Assembly (NCBI GenBank): GCA_976226885.1
Contig: OZ320321.1
Location: 59,272,001-59,336,000, forward strand
Source: Iphione sp. A-MEVVRFRX5
Lineage: Eukaryota
Direction: 5' to 3'
DNA length: 64,000 bases
A program made the position numbers and the translations under genes. Position 1 is the first letter of the stretch; every line of letters starts with the position of its first letter. Below the pieces are notes generated by a model. The model was not told where the DNA came from, ran no database searches, and was given only the letters and a program-made list of their open reading frames with translations. Shown piece after piece: positions 6,594 through 61,880 of this stretch.

Positions 6594-6983
6594 TAATTAC
6601 TCAGTTTGACTAAACTTACCTGGGTAAGTTGCAGGTAAACTGGAGTTAGTACCGCTGGAGGAACGGAGTGAGGAGCAAGGGAGATGTGACGTCTGCCATC
6701 TGGTGGACATCAGTATTGAAAGTGAACCGAGCAGCTGTCCCCTTCTGGGAGTGTCTCGTGTGAGAGACACGAGTAGAAAAAACAAAAACCCCCTACTTGT
6801 TTGCAAGGGTGAGGAGAGACTAAGCTCCCAACTGTTTTTATGGGTGAGGCAGGGTGGGCCCTTGCTCCTCACTCCGTTCCTCCAGCGGTACTAACTCCAG
6901 TTTACCTGCAACTTACCCAGGTAAGTTTAGTCAAACTGAGTAATTAGTTCCGCTGTTCGTCACTACGTGTCGACCAAGGGAGA
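6594..6983 (-). repeat. DIRS copy 1 right end: rE/ITR and internal complementary region (ICR)
   Basis: 88-bp perfect inverted repeat 6594-6681 / 6859-6946, then 6945-6983 complementary to the element's 5' end. Internal palindrome AACTTACC-TG-GGTAAGTT. Confidence 0.93.
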
Positions 6984-7259
6984 CTTGAAAGATAAAGGAC
7001 ATCAACAAGGGACAGCGTTCAGGTAAAAACTGACTTTAATGCCAAAGAATGATAAAGGCAAAAGACAAATCGAGCAACATGAACAACTTTGTCCTCTCGG
7101 AGGATTAACCCATGGTCCGACAGACGTTATAACTCAACACTAAGGCACAAATGGAACTTTGTTCCATCAGCAAAAAATGAAATTTAAGTTTTAGGGTTAT
7201 GAACTGCATTTCATACATAGAACTGACTAGTAACCCCAACAAAGTGTGCAACGCTTGAA

Positions 7260-8351
7260 CTAATGTCCCTGAGGGGTAATGTCACGCCGGTAGTGTCTGA
7301 GAAAACTAGAGTCCGACCGCCACATGCCTTTTTTCAAGATTTCGTGCAAAGGCATCCCCTGCGCATGAAGCTTGGAAGAGGAGGCCCCTCTCGTACTATG
7401 GGCCGTATAGACTGTCGTGTCCACACCTGCTACATGCATCACCTGCTTTGCCCAACGAGCAATCGTTGTTTGTCCTGCCGGCCGGTGAGGGGGAATGATG
7501 CCCACCAGCAGTTTCCCTGCGCCATCAGCAATGTCAGCGGTTTTTTGTAAGTACTGCTTAAGGCAGCGAACAACACACAAAGCCCTGTCGTCCTGACATG
7601 GTTTTAACTCTACCCTGTCCGTACCTCGTCCCGGGGTCGAGTGTTTAAGTACGGACCCATAGAGAATTGTGACTGAACCATCAGAAGAGAAGTGAATATT
7701 CTTCCGCAAGATCTTATACAACGTCTGTGTTCTGCCGCAAGATGTTAAGAGCAGTAACATGGTCGTTTTCAATGTGAGCTCCTTGAGCGACAAAGCCGTG
7801 TTAGGAGTCCACGTCCGCAGAAAGTCCAGTACCATATCTACGTCCCACGTGTTCGAGTATTTAGCTCGAGGCGGCCTAATGTTGAATATGCCCCGTAGCA
7901 TTCGTGAAGTCACCGGTTGTTGGCCAAAAGGTATGCCCCCCACTCGAGGGAGGATAATTGACAGTGCCGAGCGGGCCGTATTGATGGTATTATACCGGGC
8001 CCCTTGTCCAAAGAGTTTATGCAGGAAGAGGAGGCCTTGTTCTGTGGTGGCCTGTCGTGGGTGCCACCCCCGCTCCACGCAAAACGTATGCCAGCGTTGT
8101 AAGTAGGATCGGTATACTTTCCTTGTTTTGGGTCTCCAAGAGCGCAATACATGACGTGCAATAGCTGGGTGGCGCGTCATTTCCTGCACTGCTTGTAACA
8201 TAAGAACGCTGACACCAGTTTGGAGCTGGCAATGTGAGGCTGGCTGTGAGCGAGGTGGCCGCGTAGGTTGTCGGGCTGGCTGTAGAACTTCAGAATCGGT
8301 CTGCTCGACTCTCTTGTCAGGAGGGGAAACCACCATTGGGCGGGCCACCAT
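7260..8351 (-). CDS. DIRS tyrosine recombinase (YR)
   Basis: 363 aa. Catalytic-type residues: CGR, HSTR (H-x-x-R), GMW and C-terminal RHY. N-terminal SAM-like region (RPKTRKVYRSYLQRWHTFC). Overlaps the 3' end of pol by 175 nt. Confidence 0.93.
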   Translation of the reverse strand: MVARPMVVSPPDKRVEQTDSEVLQPARQPTRPPRSQPASHCQLQTGVSVLMLQAVQEMTRHPAIARHVLRSWRPKTRKVYRSYLQRWHTFCVERGWHPRQATTEQGLLFLHKLFGQGARYNTINTARSALSIILPRVGGIPFGQQPVTSRMLRGIFNIRPPRAKYSNTWDVDMVLDFLRTWTPNTALSLKELTLKTTMLLLLTSCGRTQTLYKILRKNIHFSSDGSVTILYGSVLKHSTPGRGTDRVELKPCQDDRALCVVRCLKQYLQKTADIADGAGKLLVGIIPPHRPAGQTTIARWAKQVMHVAGVDTTVYTAHSTRGASSSKLHAQGMPLHEILKKGMWRSDSSFLRHYRRDITPQGH

Positions 8352-10081
8352 GGAGCTACAACGATGAGTGTTGCCCTGTCCCGCTGAGCTTTCCGGATGA
8401 CGCGACCCACCAAGCTGAAAGGAGGGAAAGCGTATGCACAGTCAAACTGAGCCCAGTGTAACGAGAAAGCGTCAATAAACACGGCAAAAGGGTCCGGTTT
8501 CCAGCTAATGTATTGAGGGGTCTTGTGATTTATTCGTGACGCGAATAAATCGATGTCGGGTTGCCCCCACTGAGTTACGATCCTGTCAAAGATATGTGGA
8601 TTTAGTTCCCATTCTAGTTCCAGATTTAACACTCGAGATTCAGCGTCCGCTGTAACATTTTGTACACCCGGTATGTGTGTAGCTTGGAGGACTAAATTTC
8701 GTTGCTCCGCAAACCGCCAAATTTCAAGGGCCACCAAATTACATTTTCCTGCTCTCGTTCCGCCCATGTTGTTTATGTATGCGACTGTGGTCGTGTTATC
8801 CGACATGATGAGGAGGTGTGTGTCTTGGAGGTGCTCACAGAACGTGCGGAGGCCAAACAAAGCTGCCGTTAATTCTAACACATTAATGTGAAAAGTGTTC
8901 TCTGTTTCAGACCAAAGGCCACCTGTGCTGCATGTTCCGAAGGCCGCCCCCCAGCCCGTGAGGGAGGCATCCGTGTATATGGTGTGAACTGGAGTCGAGG
9001 ACGGATAATGTTTCTGTAGTGTGGGGAGGTGGTGATGCCACCACTGAAGGTCCTCCCGGCATCTGTGTGTCAGTGAGAAAGTACCTTCGAACCCAGACAG
9101 ACCCGCCCTTCGCAAACATTTGATCTTCCTTCTTTCTAGGTGTTTCATGTGTGCCGGCCCGTAAAGGCTTGCTTTCGTGAGGTCATTCAGGGAACCGATG
9201 AGTGATGCTGCTTTTCTGATTGAGCAGGTGTTTTGTTTGAGCAGTGTCTCTATTTTGAACAATGTCTTTGCGACCCTGTCTTCTGTTGGGCGGACTGTTT
9301 GTTCTACCGAGTCTAGTATGTATCCCAAAAAGGTGATTGACTGCTTGGGTGTTAGGCTGGATTTTGTCATGTTCACGACAAACCCGAGGGAGGTTAAAAT
9401 ATGCATGACTGTGCGTGTGTTCGCTTCTGCTGTTTCTCGAGTGTCACTGATAATGAGCAAATCATCCAGATATGCGACCATTTGTATGCCCTGCTCTCTA
9501 CAGGAGGCTAGGACCGGTTTTAGAATCTTGGTAAAGATCTGAGGAGCTGGGCTAAGTCCAAAGGGGAGTACGTTGAACCGGAAAAACTGGCCCTGCCACT
9601 GGAAAACCAAAAAATCTCTGGCTGTTTCGTCCACCTTCACAGAGTGATAAGCATCTTTGAGATCCAAGGAGGTGAGGAAGGCATCTCGGTTTATTGCTAA
9701 CAGGGCAGACTGAAACGTTTCCATTTTGAAGTGTGATTTTTCCAGGAAGGAGTTTAACTTGGATAGGTCAATGATGAGCCGGAAGGTACCGTTCGGTTTC
9801 GGTCGGAGGAAGACGTTCGAAACAAATTTAGCTTCTTCTCTTTTTACCACCGAGATGACCCCCTCTTCTAGTAAGTTAGTAATTGCGTTTGTTGCGGCTT
9901 GGGTTTGTTCTGAATCGAATCTATATGGACGGGGAACCTCTGTCTGTTCCGGGGTTGAAACAAATCGAAGGGAGATCCCTCGTACCATAGCTAAAATATG
10001 TTTGTCAGATGTGAGCTTTTCCCACTCCGAAAGATACAAGGCAATAGTCGGCTTGCAAGAATGTAAACACGAAGTACTCAC
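8177..10081 (-). CDS. DIRS pol: reverse transcriptase, RNase H and adenine-methyltransferase-like domain
   Basis: RT motifs LDLKDAY, LPFGL and YLDD. RNase H motifs TDASLTGWGA, HINVLEL and SDNTT. MT motifs DIDLFAS and YAFPPF. The track start is GTG and there is no ATG near the 5' end. Confidence 0.95.
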   Translation of the reverse strand: MSTSCLHSCKPTIALYLSEWEKLTSDKHILAMVRGISLRFVSTPEQTEVPRPYRFDSEQTQAATNAITNLLEEGVISVVKREEAKFVSNVFLRPKPNGTFRLIIDLSKLNSFLEKSHFKMETFQSALLAINRDAFLTSLDLKDAYHSVKVDETARDFLVFQWQGQFFRFNVLPFGLSPAPQIFTKILKPVLASCREQGIQMVAYLDDLLIISDTRETAEANTRTVMHILTSLGFVVNMTKSSLTPKQSITFLGYILDSVEQTVRPTEDRVAKTLFKIETLLKQNTCSIRKAASLIGSLNDLTKASLYGPAHMKHLERRKIKCLRRAGLSGFEGTFSLTHRCREDLQWWHHHLPTLQKHYPSSTPVHTIYTDASLTGWGAAFGTCSTGGLWSETENTFHINVLELTAALFGLRTFCEHLQDTHLLIMSDNTTTVAYINNMGGTRAGKCNLVALEIWRFAEQRNLVLQATHIPGVQNVTADAESRVLNLELEWELNPHIFDRIVTQWGQPDIDLFASRINHKTPQYISWKPDPFAVFIDAFSLHWAQFDCAYAFPPFSLVGRVIRKAQRDRATLIVVAPWWPAQWWFPLLTRESSRPILKFYSQPDNLRGHLAHSQPHIASSKLVSAFLCYKQCRK

Positions 10082-10083
10082 CC

Positions 10084-11253
10084 TTACTGGCCTTTGGGCT
10101 GAGACTTGGGTGCTAGGCCCAGCCCCTTCCCGTTTCCCGGATTGCTATCCGAGTTGTCAAGTGGGCTTCGGTAGGAGGTACTGTTCTTGTAGTCCTGGCC
10201 ATTGCGGTTTGCTTTGTACCTGCCCTGCTGTTTGGGCCCCTGTTGGCTCGTCCCCGGCTTGTGTCTGGGGTAGGGGCCTCCCCAGTTGTTGGTGTTTCCG
10301 TTCTTAGCCTTGAACTTCCCTCCTGCTTTTCCTTTGTCGAACCTGCGCGAGAACTTCTCGTCCTCCTCCAGATCCTTGCATTTTTGTCTAAAGTCATTGC
10401 CAAACAAGAACTCCGCTGACGCCGACGCCTCGTCCACTAACTTTTTGTACGTGTCGGGCAAACCCATTTTGACCTCCTGGCGCCGGGTTTTCAGGAGCTC
10501 CGCCCTGTTACTTGCCTCCAAGTTTACCGTGTCAGTCACCAACTTGAGTATGTCCCTGACCCACGGGTGTTCTCTTTCTTTCTTGATAAGAGCCTCGCAG
10601 ATACGTGTCAACACTGTAAAAATGGTATTTGAGTTGTGCATGTGCCGTTGTAAGAGTTTGTCCCTGTTGCGTCCCACGGGATGCATGTGGAGCCAGAGGG
10701 CCGAATTCAACTTTGGTACCTGAAGTTGTTGGAGGTTACTTGGTCTGGCATATTTCTCTCTGAGAGCCTTGATAGCTTCAGCGTCGAGGGGTTTGTCAAC
10801 TCGGCCTCCGAAGAACTTTGCCACTCTGCTGTGGGTAGGTGCCGACACTGACTTGTCTTGGTTGATGTTTCGGGCCAATTCCTCAAAAAATTCGCCGTCT
10901 TCTACGTCCCCCGGTTCTGAGAGTGAGGGCATTTCCGAATCTTCGGGCAATGACCCGAGCAGCCCTTCGTTAGAGAAGGAAGAGATGGTGGACGCTTGGT
11001 CCCTCAGCATCCTGTCGATTGATGGCGCGAAACTGCTACTGCGTCTGCTGCCTGCCACCGCGGACGAGGTGCGTTCCACAGCCGACAGCCGTGCCCCCAG
11101 GTCATGGATAGCTCCTAAAACTTGCGAGAGTGTATCCTCATTAGTTTTTTGGCGGCGTGGTGCGGATCTTTCATCCTGAAAGTTCGCCCGAATAGCTTCG
11201 TTAACATCAGAGTCACTAGAGGAAGCCTGTCCCGCCTCGTGTTCGTCCGGCAT
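10084..11253 (-). CDS. DIRS gag-like ORF1
   Basis: ATG in GCCACCATG context at 11253 gives ~389 aa, matching the 391-aa ORF of copy 2. Shared motif [33 protein letters not shown]. Confidence 0.85.
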   Translation of the reverse strand: MPDEHEAGQASSSDSDVNEAIRANFQDERSAPRRQKTNEDTLSQVLGAIHDLGARLSAVERTSSAVAGSRRSSSFAPSIDRMLRDQASTISSFSNEGLLGSLPEDSEMPSLSEPGDVEDGEFFEELARNINQDKSVSAPTHSRVAKFFGGRVDKPLDAEAIKALREKYARPSNLQQLQVPKLNSALWLHMHPVGRNRDKLLQRHMHNSNTIFTVLTRICEALIKKEREHPWVRDILKLVTDTVNLEASNRAELLKTRRQEVKMGLPDTYKKLVDEASASAEFLFGNDFRQKCKDLEEDEKFSRRFDKGKAGGKFKAKNGNTNNWGGPYPRHKPGTSQQGPKQQGRYKANRNGQDYKNSTSYRSPLDNSDSNPGNGKGLGLAPKSQPKGQ

Positions 11254-12751
11254 GGTGGCTAAGATGGCGACCGTTCCCTTGCGGGTCCGCGCGGAAAAAA
11301 CGTCCGATAGCACAGAAAACGGACTATGACCTCCCCGTAAAAGGTGGTCCAGGGAAACGTAAGCCCCAAGCACTAAAAGATGAAACAATCTTGGGTGTCA
11401 CCAGGCAACAGAAAAACCCGATGGTGATTGATAATCTTCAACGAAAAAACGGTTCCTGTATCCACCTGGCGAGTTCGTACTTTCACTGATGTCCACCAGA
11501 TGGCAGACGTCACATCTCCCTTGGTCGACACGTAGTGACGAACAGCGGAACTAACTAAGTATGCTCTCCCTCACTACCATGACGCTCATGCTTCACACAG
11601 CACAGATGAAAGTTAACTGCACATGCATATCCTCCGGCAAATACAATTCTGAAAGCACTGAAACGTAGTTTTTGAAGTCCCTGACCAGAATGGGTTTTTT
11701 TTCACTAGTATATTTCAATATCTCTCTTAGCAGCAAACTCCTCTCGGCATCTGGTCAGGTCATCTGCCTGGCTTAGTTTTAGGTGTACGGCTACGATAAC
11801 GAGGTGAATCGGTGGGTGGGTTAATAATACGACAAGAAACCTCCTTCCATACTTGAGCACCATATTGATCAATCATAGCGTGAACTCGAATCTGCCTCGA
11901 ACAGAGCCGTCTTGGCCGCCCGTCGTAGAGGACCTCTACACTTGACTCTCATTGAGAACCAAGCAGTTCTGTTCGGTGGTTTGTTTCAAGTATTATCGCT
12001 TCAACATACGAAAATCACATCGGGGAAGGGGGAGGGACGGGGAGTTATGCCAAGAGGTCACACGATAAACACATTCACAAAAGAAAAACTAAACCAGAGA
12101 AAAGATTGGTTTCAACATCAAATCTATGAACACGATTTTTTTTTGTTCTAAAAAAGTTGCCTCATAAAAACTGTGAGGAACACGTTTCTTGTACCATGCC
12201 TTCTAGGCAAGAACTTAAAACCATCTTCCCCAGAAACTCAAATATAGTTAGCCTACTTTTGCAACTTCATGACTATGCCTTGAACCACAAAAGGTGCGAA
12301 AAATTCCCCTTTCATAGATCATCTGACGGGGCACACCCTGTTCAAAGTCTGACATCCTTTCATGTTCAGGTGGACATGTCACCCAGTCATCCTGACCCAA
12401 TGTGGTTTTAGCTTAAACGGGTCGACAGTGGCGCGCCTAGAAGTACGATTCAGCACTACTACCACAACAGCTACATATCCTGCGTCTCCTCGACCTCCGT
12501 CTCCTTGACCTTGTCCTCGTTCCGAATTTCACATAGGGCTGTTTTGTTGCTTTGTGGCAAATACGTTTTGTTGTTCAGTTTAGATCCGACCAGCAAGACA
12601 CGCGTGGGGACTACCTCGACCACACCCGCTTGTCGAAGTACCTTGATCGCAGAGGAGGTGATGACGGTGGGAAGGTGGGAGGGCGTTGGGGGGGCGGGGG
12701 TTGTACGCAGCGATCGTCTCGGTGGGCGGGTCGTCGGGCGGCAAGGCTCGC

Positions 12752-34320: not shown

Positions 34321-37300
34321 CTACTTGATGTCACACAGGGCAGCAACACCGCGCAGTGTCCAATGATCTGGACTCTGCACAGTCTTCAACAGAATAAAGG
34401 TGATGTAGTTGAGGTCGGTTCGCTGTGGCTTCTTGTAGACTGGACAGCGATACTGGCGGGGGTCCTGGGGTCCTGCCTGTATAGCGTACATGTGGATGAC
34501 GGGTAACGGAGTGAACAGCACCTTAGGCTGGGATTCGACGAGACGTAGTTGACGTCGGTCCCAGCTCGCCCCATCCAGGTAGAGTCCGTGTATGTAGACG
34601 CCTTCAGGGGGTCCTGCCACAATATCTTCCTTGAAGTATTTTGTTGCATCATTGTAGAGGATTACTGAGTCGAGTGCCCATCCTTTGTGTGCCCTTGTCA
34701 CCTCCTGCCTCATAGCTGTCAGGAATCCTGCAGTAGAAACAGTGTCACTGAAGATCCTTTCCCAAAGGAAACGGTATTTTTTCAGAATTAAACTTGAACA
34801 TGGTAGTCCCCATCTGACTTCACTATGATCAATAAGTACATGTATAAAGAAACGTACAGAAACGTAAAACAACGTATAAACAAGTATAAAAAAAAAATCT
34901 TTGATTTCAAATGATCTATAAGAGAAATGCAAATACGCTGCATGATGAATTCTAGACAGGATAACGGGAAGTACCCACCCTGGGGATTAAAGAATCCTGT
35001 CATCCAAAAGACAGCAGGCCGGCCCTCAAAGACCCAGCGGGAGAACTGCTCGCTGCGTTCAAGCAGCTCCGTAAACCAGAAGCCCAGAGTCGACGACTGC
35101 CATGAAATGCGGCGCCAGAGCCCAGGAACTCGAGCATCGTACATGTTGTCCAGGGCATCTCTTAGGTTCTCGGACATGATAATGGTTCCCTCAATGGCCA
35201 GTTTGAGGTCGGTGAGTGTCGTGCGTACACTGGTTATGACTCGCTGCATGCGATCAATCTCCTGCTTCAGGAAGATGTTCAGTGGCTGCAGGTGTCCCAT
35301 CTTACGCAAGCGATCACGGACCTGCATCAGAGAACATTTACAGATACTGTGAGAATGACAAGGGTACATTATTGAAAGATAATCATGGAGAAAGGGAAAG
35401 CACTGTAATATATAAATATATAGTGTACAGAAAACCAACAAGTTTAGGTTTCTTTGCTCAGCATGCATACCAGGCAGTCCCGACAAAAGGTAATAACTTC
35501 AATTTACTTTATTTTTGACATTTGACACATTCAGACGTATCCAGTACTACTGTCATGTTTGAGGAACGGAAACTGACCTCATGAGGAATGTAGTCTGGTG
35601 GTAGTTTAGAAAGCATATCATCAGCCATGCGGTAGACAATGGTTTCTCTCGTTTCGCCTCCGCCACCGCCGCTGTCCTTTGGCTGAATGTTCATGATACT
35701 CTCCAACACCTCTGCCGCCATGTTGCTCTGATAGGTGATGTCAGCATTTGGGTGCAGTCCAAACGCTTCAGGAGAATCTACAAGGGGCATCTCCTCAATG
35801 AAGGCCATGTATTCCTCGATCTTTTTACACTTAGGAATCTTGTAGCCCTTGTAAAACTGGAATGCATCACTAAACATTTGGTCGCTGAACCATACCTGGA
35901 AATAAAGAGCAAAAGTTTGGTATTCAATTTGGAATTGAATACATACTTATACAGTTGGATGTCATTTTGCTTCGTGGGTATGTAGTTTACTCAATTTACC
36001 AACACTTTGTCAAACAGATTTTTGTCATCGTCTATAACCGTCTTACCTTGGCAAAGGTGTTCAGGAGATGTTTGTCATAGTCATCAGTGACACGACCTCC
36101 GTACTGCACTTCTCCAAGCATGTAGCGGACCGTGCTCCACGACACGCCTTTCTTCGGGTCGATGTCATCGAGGTGGTTCTGTACGAACTGCACGCTAGCT
36201 GTCCAATCTGAGGAGTTAAACTCGTAGGGAATATTCCAGCCAAGAGGTCCAAACTTGCGACGTTCCTAATATGATGTCAAACACAAATGCCGGTCAGAAT
36301 ACATGCAATGCGAATTTATCAAAGCATATTCAAGCTGATGCTATTCATAGAATTCATTTTGAAACTAAGGTGAACTTTATTATTGTCAAATAACACACTA
36401 CCTATCTTCCTCTAATAAATACACTTAAAAAATGAAATCCGTTTGTGTATCCAAATACATGTGCACGCAGATTTTGCAAAGGCCTTTCTTCGAATAAAAA
36501 AGAATACATCTTGATGGCGCATAAAAATACATAAAAAGAACTCCTGCGGGACTTCAGTCTTTTGAATAAATGTAAATGCAGTTCCAACCTGCACAACGGT
36601 GTGCATGAACGAGACTCCATACAGAATGGGTCTCCACTGTGGCAGGTTGGTAATGTCGAGGAACTCCTGGCTGATATCTGTGTATGTCCGCTTGAGGCCC
36701 GCCTTGATACCCTGTGGCGGTTCATTGGTGAACTTGATGGAACTCTGCAGCAGTGAGATGGGGAATTTGGGGTGGACCTCGGTAGTAATCCAGACACGGA
36801 ACGCCTCGTGAATGGTGGGTGTCTCCAGCAGTGTTGTGAGTAACTCATCCATGAAGTCCAGGCCAAGATGGCAGTTTTGGAGCAGGGCCCAGCCACCCTA
36901 AGCACAGAGGGCAAATAATAAGATAACAATTAGAAGATGGCAGTTTTGGAGCACGGCCCAGCTACCCTAAGCACAGAGGGCAGATAATAAGATAACAATT
37001 ACAAGACATGGCAATTTTGGAGCAGGGCCCAGCTACCCTAAGCACACAGAACAAATAATAAGATAACAGTTAACAAAAAACAACAGGTATATGGGACCTA
37101 ATAGCTGTTGTGTTCCAACTGAGTAACGACAATGATGTACGCTTATTTACTCACAGTTTGCATGAACTGGCCGATCAGACGACGAGCATGCACCTCCTGA
37201 CCTTGGCCCATGGAGATGGCTCGACACTCGAGGTGCACCTTCTTGGCGAGGCCCTCGATCTGATTGGTCGGGTCAGAACCCATGGAGAGGAAGCAGATGA

Positions 37301-40300: not shown

Positions 40301-43300
40301 CATGATGCTCTCAGATCAAACTCGTCCTGCTCTATTATTTTTGACTACTGACCTTGTAAGTAGAGCCCGACTTGATGAAGTTCTTCTCGAGGACATTATC
40401 GAGTGCTGGGTCGAGCTCCTCACCGACATCCTCGATAATGAGAGGTCGACCAAGAGACAAAGCATCCTCCATGTGAGTGCGAAAGTACTTGTTGTTAAGT
40501 GACGTCATCTGCAACACAAGAAAGAGTGCGCTTGGCTCATAAACATATAGAAATAACGTATAAAAAGGGACAGTATGGACTGTATACTGGACCGTCCACA
40601 GTGCAGTTCGGTATTCACGTGTATTCGTCTCTATAAGCTTTCTCACCTGAAGCTCATTATCTTTCTCCCTGTTCTTGATCCAGATTTTGCCTTGACCTTG
40701 TGGATCTATCAAGAGTGGATAACGTGTTGCCTTTGTGACAATTATTCCATTCTGAATAGACAGGTCGTCGTTTGGTAAACCCTGAAGATTCCACTCGCCA
40801 ATCTGCAAATAAAAGATTTATGGCAACTTGTCACTGTGAATGTTTCTTACTGGATGAACTTAAACATATCCACACCATTAAAAGAAACTAATATCTAATT
40901 ACTCTACATGTATATGGAGAATTATTTACGTCCAGATGTACACTGTATCTTGACTATCCATGTCTATTTTGGGATCTAAGAACGACGGGAGTACGAACCG
41001 TAGCATTATCCACCAACATGGCCGTAAGGTTGAGACTCTGGGTGAATGGTATTTGACGTCTGGTGAGCTCTTGTTGCCAGTCGTTCTGTAGTCGGTTCCT
41101 GAATTCTTGATTAAATGGTCCAGAATATGACAGGAAACCCGTGCACAGAAGGACATCACCGACAAGTCTGCAACAAATGGAGACTGTTGAGTGAGATGAC
41201 TTGTTTAAAAGTAAAATGGCTTGGAGAAAAATCTCCCTGTGAAGAAGATATAAACTGTAAATGATCCATCTGTACTGTAGGTTGCTGCTAAAAGAAAAAG
41301 GGAGCAGAGAACAGAGCTCACATATGAAAAAATGATCAAAGAGATCTTTGGTTCAATCTTTGTCACAATGGCAATGTTATGCGTTAAAGGAAAATTTGCC
41401 CAATTCAGGAATTACACTGTGCTAGTCAGGAATCTCAAAATACATGTATTTCTAATTGTGCAACATCGGATAAACGCATTATAGCGGTCCAGTCTTATTC
41501 CTACCAGGCCTATTGACCAGACGATAATCTCCAATCCAGCTATCTGGTATCATAGGTATGCTCATACAGTCACGCACCCTCTTCCCAGTTATCATTATAT
41601 TGCTGGTCAACACACATAGGCTCACATAAGAACCTACTTATTAATCTGAGCAGCGAACTCCTTGCTCTGTTGCGTCCACCTGACCTTCTCACCGCCCAGA
41701 CCGCCGATCAAAGCAGAAGCAGCCTCCATCTTTTTCCTGCACGATTCTGCATCATCAAGCAGATCCTAGAGAACAAGGAAAAAAATGACAAGCTTGGTAT
41801 TTTGTTTTATTTTTAAACAATGCCTGCAAGCTTCACACACACCCAGGCATCCATATGGTCGATGAGCAGCGCCCTACACTTCCTATACGGTCCCTACACC
41901 AGGAAACAGAATAAACCTCCTAACCCAATCATGTTACTGTCACTTCGGTAATATATCGGTAAATGGGCATGCATGAGCTGAAAATCACACAATACGTGGC
42001 TATACCACAGACGGCCCAGAACGAACCTGCTTCTCCTTCATGGCTGCATCGTACATGGCCTGCACAGCATCCAGCTCCTTCTGCTTGTCGTCAAGCTGGG
42101 CCTGGGCATTGTTCAGCTCATTAGTGGCTGACTGTAGGCGACCTTCCTGAACCGCAAGGTTGGCCTTGAGCGGCAGTACCTCTTTGTTTACACCATAGAA
42201 GGTCGCCATAGCCTGCGTCCAACAGCAGAGTCCGGCTACATCACCACACACACGCTTGGCCATGTCCAGGCTGTAGTCCTCCATTTGGAAGTAAGCGTTG
42301 AGTAGCTCCACTGTCTCTTCATTGATTGTGTCTTTCGGGAAGTCCATCAGTGTGCTCAAGAACGTTGAACTGCTCATAAGCTTTAACATATCAAAAAAGA
42401 CCAAGAATGATCGTGTTAATCCTAAAAGTGACTTGATAGTGAAAACGATGGCTAGTTTTTTCTCTTCAGTTAATAGAATTATTCCATACTCGTGGAGTAC
42501 ACAATCATGTACACTATCTTCCGATATCCATGCAATGTTTCGGTGAATATTTCACACGCCGCAGCAAATGTGCTGGTCACTTTTTCAAAACCCAGCAATA
42601 ATATTAAGACCTTCCAACTAAAACTGAGCATGGAATAAAGATGCACACACAGTAGCAGACTTAGAGGCTGGGTTCGTTGTCATATCATACTTGACCTCCT
42701 CCGGCCTGATAAAGTACAGGAGAAGATCAAACAGATTTACAAGTAGGTTCAAATACCTTCAGTGATTCAGCCCATGAGGGTTTCGGACATGGTCGCTCAG
42801 GATCGGCCACGACTTGATCGAGTCGCTTTTGAAAGAGCAGTAGTACACAGTCCATGATTCGCATGATGAGGTGCGGCGGTTTGGCCAGCTTTCGCACGGT
42901 GGAGATGTGTGCCGGTTTAATCGTCTGTAAAGGAAACGCAGAATTACATGCCTAGATGCGAATCAAAGGATAAGTGTCACAAAATGCCAATAAGAGATAT
43001 TTTACGAGGTAGTATTTCCAGATAGTTAAATACTTTAGTTTCAAACTTTTACTATCAGAGACCTACGAGACGTCAAAGACCGGCCATGTCTCACCTGAAG
43101 AGCAGCCTCTGCCTCTGCAAGCGCCGGTGCTGCTGCAGACAGCTTCTTTTCTGCAACAGCCTTTTCAACCTCGATTTCATCGACGATGTGCTGAGCTTTA
43201 TCCTTCACTTTTTGCACCGAGGCTTTAACTACCTCGGCTGCGGCAGCTTTCTCTGTGACATCCGCCAATACCTGGAAGAAGAAAGTGATCTTATTTGATT

Positions 43301-46300
43301 AAAATTGGCCAGTTTGACTAGAGTTACCTGGGTAATAAATGAGAAGTCAGGAAAGCCATCCTCACAATCCGATGGATAAAATCAGCTATGACGTGACATC
43401 TGTGGGAGGGGCATTTGCAAGTCTACATACATACATATATATATACACGATATATATATATCAGTTATGTATATCATTAGGCAAGTCAATGAAAGCAACA
43501 ATTTCTGCTGGATTTGAAAAATAAACTCTAAAGGCCAAATTGGTCCAGCATCCTTTGAAGTTCATGCAACTATCTTACAGACTCTTACAGATTGCAGCTT
43601 GAATACTGAGGCACTCACCACATCGGCCTTCTTGTTGGCAACAGCGAGCTCCTTCTCTTTAATGGCTAGGTCTTTGGATAACTGGTCAACGGCAACTGTG
43701 GCTTCGATGAGTTTGTCAAGGCCTGTATTCATACGGCGCGCAAGCTCACCAATATGAGCAATCTTCTCAGTGTAGATGGCCTTATATCCATCAATAAACG
43801 ACAAGTATGACTTGGGTGTTACATGCGCCTGGCGACGGTATCTAGAGTGTGGGATGAAAAAAAAGACATCCAGGAATGCGAAGAAATATAACTGTACGGT
43901 TGGTACATCGTGTGCCATGAATGATCTTTTACAGAATTCGTCTTATGATTTCCCAAATGGGCGCACTGACCTTTGGAAATAATCGATGCAGGCATTGGCC
44001 ACGTTGTCATGCACGAGCCCCATGGTCTGCATGAGCTGCTGCTTCACCTGGTCAGTAGTCTCCACTCTGTACTTGGAGAGGAAGTGTGTGGAGACGGCGA
44101 TAAGGGCATCGGGTGGCCATCCACTGAACCAGTCCATGGTGCAGCCCGAAATTAGTCCTGGGAACTTAAGTGACCTGTTCCTGAACTTCTCTCCTACCTA
44201 GAAATTTCCAAAGGTTTTGAATAGTAATTTCAAATGACATTTCTTACCTCTATCAGAAAACCCTACAGGAGAAAACCACACGTGAATGACTCTCCGGTTG
44301 TTCACTAAGTTCTACCAAAGTACTGATGTATATGCTCGTTTTTATCTCGCTCTCAACTACATGGTGCCCATGGTGCGCAACAGGACACTAGTGGTGAGTG
44401 ATTCTCTACGGACAATGTCATACCTGTATGCACTCACACTCTCTGACTGACCAGTGATAGTTTATACCTGTACTAAAACAGTCTTTAGTATACATGTCGT
44501 CATACTTTTTCAATCAGCCTCAAATTTGGAACGTTTGATATAAAAACCTACGGTTATATTTCTACCGAGATACCCTGAGCAGTATTTTTAGTCGCTATCT
44601 TTGAAAGTAAATTGATAACGCAGGCATGTACCGTCAATCTCTCCGTCTAATGAGTCTAGGAATAATCACCTGTCAAAGTGAGTACTTAAGCTTTGCGGTA
44701 TTACATGACAGATTAAGTGGCACAGCTGTAATTGTAATACAAAGAGACATCTTAACCTTTAATCGAATTACTAAAACCCAGAAACCCTAGTTTTTGCAGT
44801 TTAATTTTAAACATCTGTCAATGTAAAGTGTACATAATAATGATATATTCTGAATCTTTAGAGTATATATCAATTTTACGGGTTCGGTTTAGTAATGGGG
44901 TATGGGTAGATGGTGCAAAGTGTACGAAGGGAACTTACAGGTGAGAAGCACAGAACAACATGGAGATTGTTACGACTACGGGAGATAAAGTAGTCGTAGA
45001 GATTTTCCTGAGTGGGTGGCCGGCGTGGATATTCTTTCTTCATGACAGAAATCAGCTCGTTACACATTTCGTCAAGTTCATCGCGCGCGAAGAGATTGGA
45101 AACCTGTAAATAAACCACTGAACACTTATTGAAGTGTCTGGCATCTAATGATATTCTGCATATTTCGAAGAAATGTATTGATAGTTTTTTTCCCAGATGT
45201 GATTATCTCATCACTGAAAGATGCCAGTATAGCTAACTTGATGTGGTATTGGTATGAAGGGATGATAGAGGGTACCTTTATCGATGATATATAAGAGGGA
45301 GGTTGACGTATTGCTATCATTAATTCAACCTGACCATCGTTGTCCAGGGTAATTTTGATGAAATTTGGATATGCATGTTAGTGGATGCCAATGGGGGGCG
45401 GGGAGAAGCTTCCAAAGACTGACGTTATAAGTGGGAAGTAATGGAGGAGTACGATTTTGGCTGTTGACTTCAAGTTTGTCAGTCAGTTCCAGTTCAAAAG
45501 ATTTAATGTCGAATGAATAAAAATGATTATTTGATTTAACCTGGCTTATGACGAAGTCTGGAAAAATTTACGTGTCCAAACTGACTGGAGATTCTATTAA
45601 ATTCCAAACTTAGAACGCAAATGTTTTTTTTTTCTCAAAAACTTCACTTCTTGGTCGTGTTGCTTCAAGTAGGGGAGAATCATGTCTGTTTTGTGCTCAC
45701 AAATTTTGACATAATTTCTCTAAAAACCTTTAAACATTGATAAGGCCGTTAATTAACATCTACATATGTATATCTTCGGAATGACAATGTGATATGTTAA
45801 TAGCTGGTGCCTTACAGTCCACCTGATAAATCGTGAGCATCGTTTTCTGAATTTAACCTCTGAATTCCATAAATGGAACTCACGGTTCCCCGTATTATTC
45901 TTACACTTTGGAGATGGAATCCTGTCATCCCTGACATGGAGTTTCAGTCAAGAAAAGAACCTGATAGAATCATCACAGGCCTACACGTACATTACGACGC
46001 TAAGAAATAAGCATCGTGATGTTAAATTTCATAGAAACCTTTAGAAGGTCCTCATAAAACATGGTTAAGACAGGTATAAGTGTAGGTTTTAGCTAGTAAT
46101 ACAACGATTTTTAACCGATTACCTCGCCAGAGCTGAGCACATTGTTGAGATACTCCAGGAAGGCTTCGTCTTTGATCTCGTTGTCGGTGAAGATGAAAGT
46201 GATGCCCATGCCCTGATGTCCCGCAACTCGGTACAGGTACTTCAGATCATCCATCAGGTTCGACACATTGTAAGATCTACACAAGAGAGAACCTCATCAG

Positions 46301-51100: not shown

Positions 51101-54100
51101 CACGATCATCAAGTTCAAGCAAAGCACCTATGCTCCACATGAGGCTGCACAAAAATAAGAAAAAGTGCCCTCCTTTCAAACTTCATCGTTTTTGTATACG
51201 TTTAAGTTTAGAAAATTCACCCAGCTAAGATCTTGTTGTCATTCACACCTGGTCAAAAGATAGGTTATAGAACATCTGCCAAAAACTTCCCACCTCTACA
51301 GCATGACTGATATTATCACGTGATTACTGGTTATATAGCCAGGACTTGATACATGAGTGATCTCATTGCATGAAATGATACGGAAACCAAATGAATTTGA
51401 GATAATTTCTCACCTAAATATAAACAGCCTCGCTAAGTGGGCATCCTCTAGGTGTCCCTTCTCTTCCTTGTCCGGGATGAGGCCTTGAAGAAGATCACAG
51501 GCCTGGAAAAGTAAAAAGACAGAGCACATGTATGCAGAGAAATGAGTACCTTCTCAGATATGTCTGAGGAAGAAATGCAAAAGATAAATCTTTCCTTGTT
51601 AATTTCTATCGCTGAATAAACTGCATCTTTCTCTAGAGAATCTATATACAGCTTCATTATAAATGCTCTACATATACATAGATGCTTTTGATCGGGGGGA
51701 TGAGAATCTTCTCTATATTATTTTACCCATGCCTTGCCAAGATATGGTTTGTTAAGTACATAATTTGGCGTACTGTTTACATGTAGGAGTTTGTGTGCAA
51801 TTTATAATGATTAGCCAGTTTGACTAGACTTACCTGGGTAAGTAGAAGGTAAACTGGAGTTAGTCCCGCTGGAGGAACGGAGTGGGGAGCAAGGGAGATA
51901 CGTCACGTGCTACCTGGTGGAGGACAGTCTTGAAAGGTCTAGCCAACGCTGTTCTGGGGTTGCTGACTAAGAGGAGGAACTGAGGGGCCCTTGCTCCCCA
52001 CTCCGTTCCTCCAGCGGGACTAACTCCGGTTTACCTTCTACTTACCCAGGTAAGTCTAGTCAAACTGGCTAATTAGTACCGCTGGTCATCACTACGTGGT
52101 GACCAAGGGAGACTTGAAAGCAAGCAAGACACAGACACAGCGTCTAAGTGAACTTCTTTAATGCTGATGAGTCATGCGGATGTAACAGCAAATATAAAGT
52201 AACCGAAAAGGAGTAAACCATCTACTGAGGACGAGGCTTAATGTCTCGTCTGTAATGTTTCAAGAAACTAGAATCAGATCGCCACATTCCTTTCTTTAGA
52301 ATGTCCTGCAAGGGCATGCCTTGAGCATGCAGTTTCGACGAGGATGCCACTCTGGTACTGTGGGCCATGTAGACCACAGTGTCCACCCCGGCTCTTGCCA
52401 TGACTTCCTTCGCCCACCTGCTGATGGAAGTCTGACCTACCGGCTGGTGTGGCGGGATTAGGCTGATGAATAGTCTACTTGTCGGGGGCGTCAAGTCTTT
52501 AGTGCGGTGAAGATATGCCTCGAGGCAATGAACTACACACAACGCTGGATCGGCTGTGCATGGAGCCAACTGAATGTGATCTGTGCCCCTGCCTGGGGCC
52601 GAATGCTTTAACACTGAACCGTAAAGAATGGTGACTGTACCGTCAGAAGAAAAATGGATATTTGTTCGAACAATTTTATACATCGTCTGTGTTCTGCCAC
52701 AGGAGGCTAGCAAAAGGAGCATATTGGTCTTTAGTGTCTCCTTCAAACTTAAACTACTGTGGGGTGTCCAGCAGCGTAAGAGATCTAACACTAGGTCTAC
52801 GTCCCAAGTGTCCGTGTACTTTGCTCGAGGAGATATTGAACATGCCCCTTAGCACGCGGGATGTGATGTATTGTTGACCGAAGGATACTCCCCCCGGCCG
52901 GGGGAGGACAACAGAAAGTGCTGAGCGCGCCGTGTTGACGGTGTTATACCGGGCGCCCTGTTCGAATAGCATGGTGAGAAATAACAGTCCTTGTTGTACG
53001 GATGCCTTCGTAGGGTGGAATCCTTTTTCTAAACAGAAAAGGTTCCAGCGGTGCAAATAAGAGTGGTATAGTTTGCGAGTTTTGGGTCGCCAGGACCTGA
53101 TGATGTGTTTGCTGATGTTGGTGTTGGCCGTCATGTGGGCGACTGTTTGAAGCATAAGCGGCCTGCAAGTAGTTTCGTACCCGCGATATGCGGCTGGGAT
53201 TCTGCTAGGGGCCCGTGAAGGTTGTCCGGCTGACTGTGGAACTTGAGAGTGGGTTGACTGGTCGTTTGTAAGAAGAGCAGGAACCACCACTGCGCTGGCC
53301 ACCATGGAGAGATTAGAACGATGTTCGCGTTGTCTCTCTGCGCTTTCCGGATCACCCTGCCCATGAGGCTGAAAGGTGGAAATGCGTATGCATAGTCAAA
53401 CTGTCCCCAGTGTAAGGCAAAAGCATCAATAAACAGTGCTTCGGGGTCTTGTCTCCAGCTGATAAATCGGTCTACTTTACAGTTTACACGAGATGCGAAT
53501 AAATCTATGTCTGGCGTTCCCCATTGTTCCACTACCTGCTGGTAGATCCGGGGGCTTAACTCCCATTCGATCTCTTAAGTTAAATTTGCGTGACTCAGTG
53601 TCTGCAACGATGTTTTGGGCCCCGGGGATGTGTGTGGCTTGTAAGGTGAGGTTTCTCTCCTCGGCAAACTCCCATATGGCTAAGGCAACTAAGTTGCATT
53701 TTCCGGCTCTGGTGCCCCCCATATTGTTTATGTATGTGACCGTGGTGGAGTTGTCCGACAGGATGAGGATGTGTTCATTCCGGGCGTTAGTACAGTAAGT
53801 CCTCAAGCCGAAGAGGGTTGCCATCAGTTCCAATATATTGATGTGCAGCCTTCTTTCACTAAGGGACCACAAGCCTCCCGTGCTGTTTCCGGCGAATGCC
53901 GCTCCCCAACCGGTCTGTGAAGCGTCCGTTGTTAACTGTAGTGTGGGGGATAAGGGGGCAAAGTGTTTCTTTGTGTCCGGTAAGGCCCTGAGCCACCATA
54001 GCAGATCATTTTTGCACCTATGTGTCAGGGAGAAAGGTCCCTCGAACCTCGCACTGCCCGCCCGCTTCAAGCTCTTTATTTTTCGTCTCTCCATGTGTTT

Positions 54101-57100
54101 CAAGTGGAGCATGTGTTCCGTGTTAACAAGGTGTTAATTTTGCAGCAAGTGCGAGAGATCTTTTCTTGTGTAGGGGTGACTGTCATGTCTGTGGAGGAAA
54201 TGATATACCTCAGAAAGGTAATTCTTTGACTAGGTTCGAGTTGTGACTTTTGTAAGTTTACCACAAAGCCTAACGTCTGTAGCAATTGGATCACCCGTTG
54301 TGTTTGGCTCCGTGCCAGGTCCCTGGTAAGGCTAATTATGAGTAAGTCATCCAGATACGCTATCAAATTTATCCCTTCTTCCCTACACAGCCCTAACATT
54401 GGTTTCAGTACCTTGGTGAATATTTTTGGGGCTGGGCTGAGACCAAAGGGCAACACATTGAACATGTACATTTCGCCTTGCCACTGGAAGGCAAGATATT
54501 CCCTGTGTTGTGGGTTGATGCTGATCAAGTTGTATGCATCCTTTAGGTCTAAAGAGGTAAGGTATCCCTGATTGTCTATTGCCAAGAGGGTCGACTGAAA
54601 AGTTTCCATTTTAAAATGTTCCTTTTCAAGATATTCGTTTAGGTGTGCTAAATCGATAATGAGTCTGTACGTGCCATTTGGCTTCGGCCTCAGGAAAATG
54701 TTTGAGACAAACTTGGCCCTGTTCTGGTTTATTCGCGTGACCACCCCGCTTTGAACCATTGATTGTATGGCTGCCCCCGCCGCCTGGGTTTGTTCTGCGT
54801 TAAACTGGTACTGTCTTGGAGGGGAGTTCTGCGTCGGAGTTTTGATAAATGTTAACGAGACTCTGTGCACTATTTGCAAAACCTCTTGATTAGATGTAAT
54901 GGCTTGCCAGGCATCTATGTAATTAGCAATCGTAATTTTGTGAGTAGGAAAGGTTTCACTCACCCTTACTGGCCTTTGGGCTGGGGTTTCTGCTGCGACC
55001 CCAGCCCCTTTGCGTTTCCTGGATGGTTGCTGTCCGAGTTCTCGAGGGGGCTCTGGTACGTGGTTCCCCTGTAGTCCGCTCTCTGTCTGTTGCCTTTGTA
55101 GCGGTGTTGGTTCTGCGCGCCTTGCTGGTTTGTCCCAGGCTTGTTTTTGGTGTAGGGCTCATTGCAGTTTGCGAGGTTGCCGTTCTTGGCTTTGAACTTT
55201 CCGCCCGACTTCCCCTTATCGAACTTCTTAGAAAACTTCTCGTCGTCCTCCAGGTCTTTACACTTTTGTCTAAAGTCATTTCCAAATAGGAATTCCGCTG
55301 AATGTGATGCTTCATCGATGAGTTTTTTGTAAGGGTCGGGGAGACCCATTTTGACTTCCTGGGGGCATATTTTCAGCAAGTCATCGCGGTTGCTGGCCTG
55401 CAGGTTTACCGTGTCGGTGACCAATTTTAGGATGTCGCGCACCCACGGCTGGTCCCTTTCTTTCTTGATGAGGTTCTCTGAGATGCGGGCGAGCACTGTG
55501 AAGATTGTGTTCGCGCTATACATCTGTTTCTGGAGGGCCTTGTCCCTGTTTCGTCCCACAGGGTGCATGTGCAGCCAGAGCGCGGAGTTTAATTTCGGCA
55601 CCTGAAGTTGAGCAATGTTTTCTGGTCGAGCGTATTTTTCTCTGAGTGCTTTTATCGCCTTGGTATCCAGTGGTTTATCGACCCTGCCTCCAAAGAATGT
55701 TGCTACGCGTGCGTGTGTAGCTGTGGAGATGCTTTTGTCTCTGTCAAGACCTTGGGCTAGTTCTTCGAAGTAAATCCCTTCCTGGTCGTCTGCTGGCTCG
55801 GACAAGGCGGGCATGTTTGAATCGTTCGGCAGAGAGCCTAAGAGGCCTTCGTTCGAAAACGAAGATATACACGATTCTTGGTCTGCAAGCATTCTTTCGA
55901 TGGAGGGCGCGAAACTGCTGCGGCGGTTGCTGTATGCATCCGGTCCTGAGCGTTCAACTGCTGTGATCCTGGCTCCTAAGGAGTGGATGGCTGAGAGCAC
56001 CTGTGTCAAGGTGTCATGTTTCTCCCGACGAGGATGGGGTTCTCGGGATCCTGAAGGTTTCTGAGGAGGGTGTCCCGTGTCAGAAAGTTCAGAAGAAGAG
56101 TCATTGCCCTGTCTCCCTGGGACCTCGTGGTCATCGGCCATGTTCAGTACAAAATGGCTGTCACCAGACCTCGAGTAAGAAAGTGGAGAAATGTCCTTCC
56201 TCAGGTTCTGTAATCAACCGGGAGGATCTCCGACAGGAAAACCAAAGTCCCACGCACTACAAGATGTCAACAAAGATTCTGGATGGGTAGAATAACTTCA
56301 GATAAAAGTCAATAAAAAATCCTGACGGGGCGATGCGTCCTTCCACCTGGCGAATCGGCCTTTCACTGTCCTCCACCAGGTGGCACATGACGTATCTCCC
56401 TTGGTCACCACGTAGTGAGGACCAGCGGTACTAACCCATAGAGAATTCAATGACTCTGAACAAAACGTTGGAAATAAAAGCTGTCCTTAAACTTACTTCG
56501 GTCGTTGTGTTACTGTGTCCACTCTCCGATTTACAATTTATAATGAAAATCAGTGTACTTTTACTGCCTACTGAACACGCACTGACTAATTTTACCTATC
56601 CTTTGACTCACCTGTTTAATTTGCATGCACTGGAGGACTTCCATCTTGGCGCTCAGGGTTTGGGTGACAAAGTTGAAGAGGTCATCAAATATGCCATCGA
56701 AGCAGTTGAGTAGAACAGCACTCTCTTGTGGTGTCCGATGGTTCAGCCAACCCTTCAAATGAAACCCCAAAAATTTACCAAATCCGTTCACAGCGAAGAA
56801 TGCTACAGTCTCAGGAATTCCACGTGTGCGAAATGAGCTTGCATATACAATTCCAAACAAGTTATAAAGCCTCTTGCCATAAGGATGGGTCTCCAGTCGA
56901 GCGCCGAGGAACTCATATAAACCATGCCGTTCCTGGAGACAGTAGCGGGCGAGGCGTTGTCGATATTGTGAACCTCGAAGAGAACCTTGCAACATGGAGC
57001 CATTGTGATACGGTCACCATTGGCCAGGGTGAGCGTTTTGTTGTCATCCAGAACAGAGTTGAGGTTCTCAATCCAGATAGCATCTACTGGCCCGTCCAAG

Positions 57101-60250: not shown

Positions 60251-60859
60251 CTGTCACCAAGCAGGACAACATGCTTTATAAGCAGACGTTGGAGTCGCTT
60301 CTGCAGTCTGTTCTTTGTATTTATAGACCGAAACCCAAAATGATCTTCTGTCCTTGTTTCAAGCCCCATGTAAAAATACAGTCAGCCCTATCAACCGCCC
60401 CTCCTCCATCAACCCGAATCCTTCATCTACGGAACAGAATTGAGAGAGAAACACATTTGTATATAGTTCACAGTTAAATATCCCCAAACAACTGGATTTA
60501 TCAACCGGACTAAATTATATAAAACCGACAAATCTGGTTGATGATGGATGCTTTTGGGTAAACAGCATATTATTTAAATTTTCTATCTTTGGCGTGGACA
60601 TGGACTAGGTTCCCGACACTGTGAGATGCTACCGAGTTCAAATTTTCTATCTTAGATCTTACAGAACGTACTTCCGAAATGTTCTGGAACATTAACCCTT
60701 TGACGGCGGGAAGGGTAGTAGCACTTCAAGTCGTCAGGCGGCGCAGCAATATTACATGCATATTCCCATAGAGGGCGTGCTGTGTGCAACGTCATAACGG
60801 ACTTTTCGTCCTTGTGGTTGGGCTTGTCATTAGTAAATTAGAGTTTATGATTACCAGGA

Positions 60860-61880
60860 TCATTGTCAGACAGAATTCAGTTCACATTAGTAAAATGTGG
60901 ATATTGTGGATTGCATGAAGGTATTTTCCTTTGAATTAACTAATTTTTGGAGTCAAATCGAGGTGTTTTCTCCCTGGGTAGCTGGCACTGAACTATGGAC
61001 AGAATAGACTAACAACGTCATACTGTCACTATTGTTTAGTAAATCATAGTTTATGAAAAGCAGAGCAATTGTCAGACAGAAACTCAGTTCACCTGAGTAA
61101 ATTATGGATATTTTGCATAGGATGAGTATGTTTTGCATGGATATGAGTGATTATTGGAGTCAAATCGAAATATTTCTCTCTGGATAGCTAAGCTGGCACT
61201 GGATATATGAATAGAATGGAGAGAAACGTCATAACATGATGTGGTAGTATTTCAAAATTTATGAATAGGAGAGCAATTGTCAGACAGAAACTCAGTTTGC
61301 ATTAGTAAAATATGGAATTTTCGAGTAGCATGAGCACATTTTGCATGGATTTAACTGTTTTTTGAAGACAAATGCTATTGTTTTCTCCCTGGATGGCAAA
61401 GCTGGCACTAGATATATGAACAGAATGGGGAAAGGCGTCATACTGTTGAGTGTTTAGTGAATCATAGTTTATGAATATGATATTAATTGTTAGGCAGAAA
61501 TTAGGCTCACCTTAGTAAAATATGGATTTTCTGGGTGGCACGAGCATATTGTGTATGTAAATAACTTATTTTTGTAGCCAAATCGAGGTGTTTTCTCCCT
61601 GGACTGCTTAGGTGGGACTGGACACTGGACTTATGCACAGAATAGACAAAAAACGTCCTAATATGATAATCATACTCATGGTGACTATGTTTTAGTATTT
61701 CCAAATTTATGACTACCAGATTGTTCTCAGACACAAATTCAGTTCAAATGAGTAAGATATGGAATTTCTGGGTAGCATAATAATATTTTGCATTGAAATA
61801 AGTAAATTTTGGAGTCAGACTGAAATGTTTTCTCCCTGGATTGCTCTCTTCGCACTGGATATATGCACAGAATAGGCTAA
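60860..61880. repeat. Degenerate ~206-234-bp tandem repeat (5 units) inside the piggyBac element
   Basis: Unit anchor ATTGT(C/T)...GACAGAA at 60862, 61068, 61276, 61486 and 61720. Most units also carry TTTCTCCCTGG and CTGGCACT motifs. Confidence 0.85.

Follow-up and report, generated by a model that had tools for sequence, protein, structure and literature searches.

A DIRS1-like element and its gag-pol junction

The 64,000-nucleotide (nt) stretch of Iphione sp. A-MEVVRFRX5 analysed here (the window; contig OZ320321.1, positions 59,272,001 to 59,336,000) carries on its minus strand a 4.96 kb retrotransposon, termed E1, with a gag-like frame, a frame bearing a reverse transcriptase (RT) and a tyrosine recombinase (YR) frame. 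By its inverted terminal repeats, internal complementary region, RT and YR, E1 is a DIRS1-like element, and its layout corresponds to that described in the accessible part of PMC3266345. The subject of this report is how the second and third frames may be expressed. Comparison of about one hundred relatives points to a -1 ribosomal frameshift at the gag-pol junction and to a predicted splice which would lead the same slipped ribosomes into the recombinase. The general layout of E1 is as follows (MT, methyltransferase; ORF, open reading frame; aa, amino acids):

6595..11555, minus: E1, the DIRS1-like retrotransposon, with each of its three frames open and its ends placed to within a few bases (ORFs, terminal inverted repeat, internal complementary region)
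11485..11557, minus: left terminal repeat; 11510-11557 is complementary to 6941-6988 (94%), 11485-11531 to 6668-6714 (94%)
6594..6714, minus: right terminal repeat with extension (inverted-repeat comparison)
6859..6988, minus: internal complementary region, with an 88-nt match that is 100% complementary
10084..11253, minus: gag-like ORF1, 389 aa from its ATG, stop TAA at 10086-10084 (ORF analysis)
8177..10138, minus: pol frame, which covers the RT and the RNase H-like and MT-like regions and has its first ATG at 9988 (ORF and RVT_1 match)
7260..8414, minus: YR frame counted from the predicted acceptor, 384 aa, the first 71 codons overlapping the end of pol (ORF and domain matches)

The RT is supported by the Pfam family RVT_1 (E 6e-28). 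Downstream of it, the RNase H and MT regions had no Pfam match and no relevant PDB match; both labels are our presumption from position and from the motifs DAS..GWG, DLFAS and YAFPPF. The YR frame matches Phage_int_SAM_4 (E 2.6e-5) and Phage_integrase (E 5.4e-5), both below the Pfam cut-offs, and PF00589 is carried by 17 of 21 homologues. ORF1 has no match in Pfam; it is homologous to the N-terminal half of an octocoral protein (P0022). Among the viral contigs searched no relative was found. The 5' leader (11250-11480, minus, in the window; leaders of L035-L047) shows conserved blocks in nine aligned elements, possibly an internal promoter.

The junction itself comprises four features:

10145..10147, minus: TAG stop of the -1 (pol) frame, located 9 nt upstream of the heptamer (frame reading)
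10132..10138, minus: slippery heptamer G GGA AAC in gag register (sequence and conservation)
10126..10131, minus: 6-nt spacer, of fixed length and variable sequence within the clade (alignment)
10096..10125, minus: stem-loop, the predicted stimulator, 8 base pairs in E1 and about 11 in most relatives (folding and comparison)

A first-pass annotation, made from the letters of the window, had proposed a canonical -1 frameshift signal at this place. Our reading of the minus strand agrees with it in detail. The gag codons CCG GGA AAC contain G GGA AAC at 10138-10132 in the register X XXY YYZ with pol at -1; the spacer is followed by stem arms at 10125-10118 and 10103-10096 (8 pairs, one of them G-U, 14-nt loop). 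Upstream, the -1 frame is closed by the TAG at 10147-10145; from the heptamer on it is open for 1959 nt, into the RT, and the first pol ATG comes 150 nt past the heptamer. The annotated interval ended at 10081, which is the first base of a donor-like GT that went unmentioned.

Taken alone, E1 would only suggest a frameshift. Of 18,200 upstream gag codons in 91 elements, 36 carry a canonical heptamer in register, i.e., a chance of about 4% per 20-codon overlap. Compared with dinucleotide shuffles, the hairpin region shows no gain in folding stability (z 0.01 to -0.91), which counts against the emphasis previously laid on the hairpin. Three sets of relatives were assembled. Set 1 came from a DNA search with the gag-pol junction: 43 rows, made up of E1, a degraded second element of the window (E2), 38 further loci and three second pieces, i.e., 40 elements, all with sequences retrieved, in 33 subfamilies (RT identity below 85%, median 58%). 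Because it was selected by junction, set 1 is biased towards similar junctions. Set 2 came from a protein search with the MT region. From 150 matches listed 60 were taken, none of them in set 1, each with a pol frame open for at least 640 aa. This selection was blind to the junction sequence, but an open pol frame was required; because of this circularity the scarcity of downstream stops in set 2 is not used as evidence. Set 3 consists of five DIRS-like metagenome contigs that span the junction. The metagenome scan gave 17 loci, seven of which (L069-L075) read as DIRS-like, L073 and L074 without the junction; the other ten are partial RT matches of 26-33% identity and stand outside the analysis. 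The pool of 91 elements joins the 33 representatives of set 1 with 58 elements of set 2. P values are not given because copies are related by descent and the counts are not independent.

The MT-region search had 3072 candidates, many with open pol frames of 640-700 aa, and the copy nearest to E1 is 78% identical at the junction. The genome, of 1.18 Gb, appears to hold many diverse, low-copy, intact-looking DIRS subfamilies.

Conservation of the heptamer and its exchange between clades

The heptamer G GGA AAC is kept in 39 of the 40 copies of set 1, the exception being degraded E2. Across the 33 representatives only the first of its seven bases varies at all, being G in 32. The invariant bases include third codon positions, whereas neighbouring third positions vary freely, and the codon that ends in the first G of the heptamer varies between elements. 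These fixed synonymous positions are to be seen against backgrounds of 30% GGA among glycine codons and 28% G at third positions. A stop in the -1 frame lies at most 60 nt upstream in 30 of 40 copies; within 60 nt downstream it lies in none of the 40. Conserved pol residues start before the first pol ATG, the position of which ranges from 51 to 417 nt.

Set 2 gives the same picture and adds a second motif. An in-register heptamer is present in 58 of 60 elements: 37 times G GGA AAC, twice G GGA AAU and 19 times A AAA AAC. The two misses, L109 and L137, retain the motif and are damaged between motif and RT. L137 has also lost the stem and the gag stop. Elements with A AAA AAC have an 8-nt spacer and an unrelated stem of 7 base pairs. 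In the metagenome contigs L069-L072 the heptamer is U UUA AAC, followed after 6-7 nt by stems of -14 to -21 kcal/mol; the degraded contig L075 has A AAA AAC. On a quick RT tree (54 of 86 rows, no reference DIRS elements, used solely to show three clades) the three heptamer groups separate. There are, then, three RT clades with three different heptamers, each with a stem of its own 6-8 nt downstream. G GGA AAC and A AAA AAC as well as U UUA AAC are three of the four heptamers which the accessible part of PMC5009743 names as most shift-prone. Relatives that keep the frame offset and lack the signal, which would have spoken against the first-pass proposal, were not encountered among the 40 junction-selected and 60 MT-selected elements beyond the exceptions named; where the heptamer changes, another canonical one with a new stem stands in its place. 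That canonical signals have taken each other's place at this site is the strongest argument for frameshifting. A -1 frameshift at the gag-pol junction very likely occurs, as judged from this conservation.

The stem-loop gains from comparison as well. Among 150 sampled 32-nt windows along gag-pol, none is as stable as the stem-loop in any of the 33 subfamily representatives. Pairing is intact in 95% of the aligned cells, with changes chiefly from G-C to G-U; two-sided changes are restricted to two loop-side pairs. A stimulator of the pseudoknot type, as in PEG10, was looked for in 72 elements, and pairing of the loop with downstream sequence was no longer than in controls. A pseudoknot with sequence 3' of the gag stop can be drawn for E1; it is not conserved and was rejected.

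The predicted splice into the recombinase frame

E1 and E2 share 26 identical bases that span the gag stop and end in a donor-like consensus. The relevant sites in E1 are:

10076..10084, minus: 5' splice-donor-like AGG|GTGAGT, predicted junction 10082|10081, at a codon boundary of the -1 frame (motif conservation)
8415..8428, minus: 3' splice-acceptor-like pyrimidine tract and CAG within the YAFPPFS codons, junction 8415|8414, at a codon boundary of YR (conservation)
8415..10081, minus: predicted intron of 1667 nt over RT, RNase H and the start of the MT-like region (derived from the sequence)

In 90 of the 91 elements the gag stop is followed by a GTRNG, 5-14 nt from the first base of the stop and always in phase 0, i.e., at a codon boundary of the -1 frame. 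The sole miss, L094, has lost the gag stop and retained the motif. Sixty-five sites read G|GTGAGT; the rest are variants within the donor consensus, e.g., GTAAGT, GTAAGC and GTAGGT. The background of GTRAGY is 29 in 109,200 nt. At the other end, an AG on a YR codon boundary is found in 39 of 39 elements of set 1 (L062 is without the region) and in 58 of 58 of set 2 (the motif was not located in L098 and L109). In 32 of 32 representatives the phenylalanine ahead of it is encoded by TTC (background 56%), and the serine at the acceptor is always AGY (background 17%). The metagenome contigs fit in outline: a phase-0 GT follows the gag stop by 8-20 nt in five of five, and a phase-0 CAG or TAG stands at the YR opening or at most 6 codons from it in the four contigs with the region, at the FPPFS codons in L075 and further downstream in L069, L070 and L072. 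L053 has 3226 nt between donor and acceptor compared with the usual ~1660, i.e., about 1.6 kb extra.

Stops in the YR frame change abruptly at this point. Pooled over both sets, 3 of 897 possible sites after the acceptor are stops versus 577 of 1803 before it (set 1, 1/329 versus 178/599; set 2, 2/568 versus 399/1204), and stops are common up to 27 nt before the acceptor. The 14 subfamilies without an in-frame ATG in this region have none after it (0/138). In L087, L088 and L117 the acceptor reads TAG and is itself a YR-frame stop, directly after which that frame runs open for 978-1167 nt; therefore YR must be entered at or after the acceptor.

The phases of donor and acceptor match, and removal of 10081-8415 would therefore join the -1 frame to YR. 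The gag stop precedes the junction, so only slipped ribosomes would cross it. We propose the following sequence of events. Most ribosomes would stop at the gag TAA and yield Gag of 389 aa. A minority would slip by -1 at G GGA AAC and pass the gag stop in the -1 frame. On unspliced RNA these would continue through RT and the RNase H-like and MT-like regions, giving a Gag-Pol of about 1025 aa; where 10082 has been spliced to 8414, 17 transframe codons would be followed by YR, giving a Gag-YR of about 775 aa. A stop codon close to an exon junction lies in a zone that escapes junction-dependent nonsense-mediated decay, and a donor a few bases after the gag stop would keep the stop within this zone. 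The Gag-Pol fusion of the first-pass annotation is thus well supported by conservation, yet it is incomplete, since the recombinase is probably entered through this slip too, by way of a splice that begins 5 nt past the first base of the gag stop. Splicing to YR with a Gag-YR product is probable. As a whole, a heptamer and stem-loop that direct Gag-Pol synthesis from unspliced RNA and Gag-recombinase synthesis after the predicted splice are the likely best explanation of the comparative data.

Competing routes to pol and YR

8199..8201, minus: ATG close to the pol stop, at +213 in the YR frame, and a possible second way into YR (an ATG about here in 76 of 89 elements)

This ATG, which in many elements overlaps the pol stop as ATGA, allows a different reading: the frameshift would make Gag-Pol only, YR would start at its own ATG, either by reinitiation after termination or on an RNA of its own, and the splice-like motifs would be by-products of coding. 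Past the acceptor, third-frame ATGs are under-used, at 17 of 74 sites versus 126 of 203 upstream in set 1, which fits scanning or reinitiation, and two degenerate junction patterns that cover the commonest donor spacings matched no intronless genomic copy. However, the 71 codons between acceptor and +213, free of stops in the YR frame, are left unexplained by such a route, and so is the phase-0 donor in 90 of 91 elements. Further, 13 of 89 elements are without this ATG; L107, with an open frame of 1152 nt, lacks any ATG over 270 nt, and L069, L070 and L075 have none before the pol stop. As the exclusive route into YR we regard reinitiation as unlikely; at the ATG near the pol stop it may nevertheless be a second or the real route, perhaps alongside the splice. 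YR also lies in the -1 frame of pol, and a shift from pol to YR has been proposed for Ngaro elements (Poulter and Butler, 2015, as quoted in the accessible part of PMC13003380), so a second slip could produce a Gag-Pol-YR. At the YR opening L069 (3480-3500) and L070 (2100-2120) indeed carry a second in-register U UUA AAC which overlaps the acceptor-like CAG. The stems there are not strong, at -5.8 and -6.3 kcal/mol versus about -20 at the gag-pol sites of the same contigs; in the genome of E1 the sequence at the YR entry is variable and keeps to no heptamer, and the three copies with TAG have an in-frame stop exactly at this entry. We consider a second frameshift very improbable. Equally remote appears an expression of pol without any frameshift, whether started at a pol ATG or made on an RNA with a splice into the overlap, with the motif kept for protein reasons. 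Pol does have in-frame ATGs, and the codon before the heptamer is often an acceptor-like CAG (35 of 39 in set 2). Yet this codon is CCG in E1, TCG, ACG or GCG elsewhere, and TCA, CCA or GCA in the second clade; the pol ATGs scatter and lie after conserved residues, and synonymous positions of the motif are fixed.

Several observations weigh against the proposal of a stimulated frameshift that gates a splice. The covariation check which the first-pass annotation had suggested was carried out with a modest outcome: 6 of 11 pairs never vary, two-sided change is confined to 2 of 11, RNAalifold found no two-sided change in the stem alignment, and 12 of 500 shuffles reach the observed paired fraction. 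In the stem of the second clade 1 of 7 pairs covaries. The stem region is coding in two frames, which is itself a cause of sequence conservation. Because of this and of the RNAalifold result the structure is supported, not proven. With respect to splicing, the donors of the metagenome contigs are weaker matches, branch-point enrichment is weak (YTRAY in 49 of 89, control windows 0-42), and the acceptor lies in pyrimidine-rich Phe/Pro codons of a conserved motif. Shared ancestry of the copies means that all counts overstate independence. In an alignment of 9 of the 33 5' leaders, no GTRAG-type site that might be a second donor was conspicuous by eye, and none of the 10 YR N-termini examined among 21 protein matches had a transframe peptide. 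The predicted Paramuricea clavata protein P0022, the one longer match, joins Gag, pol fragments and the YR linker; it is an unverified gene model and gives no more than a hint of an open linker frame in an octocoral.

The remainder of the window, known systems and implications

51805..56435, minus: degraded DIRS element E2, of another subfamily (sequence and repeat comparison)

E2 has the same stem and the donor-like and acceptor-like sites, a non-canonical heptamer A GGA AAC, and broken pol and YR frames. It lies between segments of a dynein heavy chain, all on the minus strand (AAA_6 at 57.3-57.9 kb, Dynein_C at 34.3-35.5 kb), and is probably a sense-oriented intronic insertion which still carries strong splice-like sites. 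Elsewhere in the window, 62346-63302 (minus) is an open frame of 318 codons with matches to DDE_Tnp_1_7 (E 2e-32) and zf-Tnp_2, presumably piggyBac-like; adjoining it, four to five diverged copies of a unit of ~208 nt occupy 60830-61880. A 69-nt unit is repeated three times in tandem at 36865-37073 (87-94% identical), and an isolated match of 33-41 nt to the DIRS right end or internal complementary region at 43295-43335 is perhaps a remnant.

Retroelements are known to splice their RNA for subgenomic messages, e.g., retroviral env, foamy-virus pol and Drosophila copia gag. E1 would share with these the principle of one primary RNA which serves unspliced as genome and spliced for another gene. 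There, however, a gene expressed by splicing either is in frame or brings its own start, whereas in E1 the donor follows the gag stop and the exon would be readable by frameshifted ribosomes only. In its frames (gag, RT with RNase H-like and MT-like regions, YR), its pol-YR overlap, its length of ~5 kb, its terminal inverted repeats with a right extension and its internal complementary region, E1 resembles the DIRS1-like elements described in the accessible parts of PMC3266345 and PMC9210276. The overlapping ORFs are described there without an account of how pol or YR is translated. With gag-pol frameshifting of retroviruses and long terminal repeat elements, as far as presented in PMC5009743, E1 has in common the X XXY YYZ motif in register, a short spacer, a 3' structure and pol at -1. 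The differences are that the host is a YR retrotransposon, that the slip appears to feed two alternative downstream frames, and that the stimulator is a plain predicted stem-loop, not a pseudoknot as in PEG10. The Ngaro proposal, in the part quoted in PMC13003380, likewise invokes recoding to reach a YR at -1 to pol; it concerns another superfamily and another junction, and the YR entry of E1 behaves like a splice acceptor. In the literature covered, partly in excerpt and with Poulter and Butler (2015), older work by Goodwin and Poulter, Repbase Reports and supplements outside the search, neither gag-pol frameshifting nor gag-to-YR splicing was found described for DIRS1-like elements. The frameshift is very likely real and is a known mechanism in a group for which we found no published description of it; the frameshift-gated splice to the recombinase is likely.

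The comparisons provide exact coordinates for the expression of pol and YR, which the DIRS literature covered, as far as accessible, leaves unexplained. From the sequences it seems fairly likely that many DIRS1-like elements make three proteins from one RNA: a single -1 frameshift upstream of a splice donor would set the ratio of Gag to enzyme, and splicing would pick either RT/RNase H/MT or the recombinase. Such a design would have persisted although heptamer, stem and acceptor position were exchanged between clades and hosts. If this is true, RT and recombinase would both be tethered to Gag, at low levels and from different RNA isoforms, which would offer a way to load both enzymes into the particle in an element without a protease. 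The long pol-YR overlap would be a dual-coded linker that starts at the splice acceptor, and DIRS proteins annotated from their first ATG would be truncated. Among recoding designs, the gating of an alternatively spliced exon by a frameshift would be unusual.

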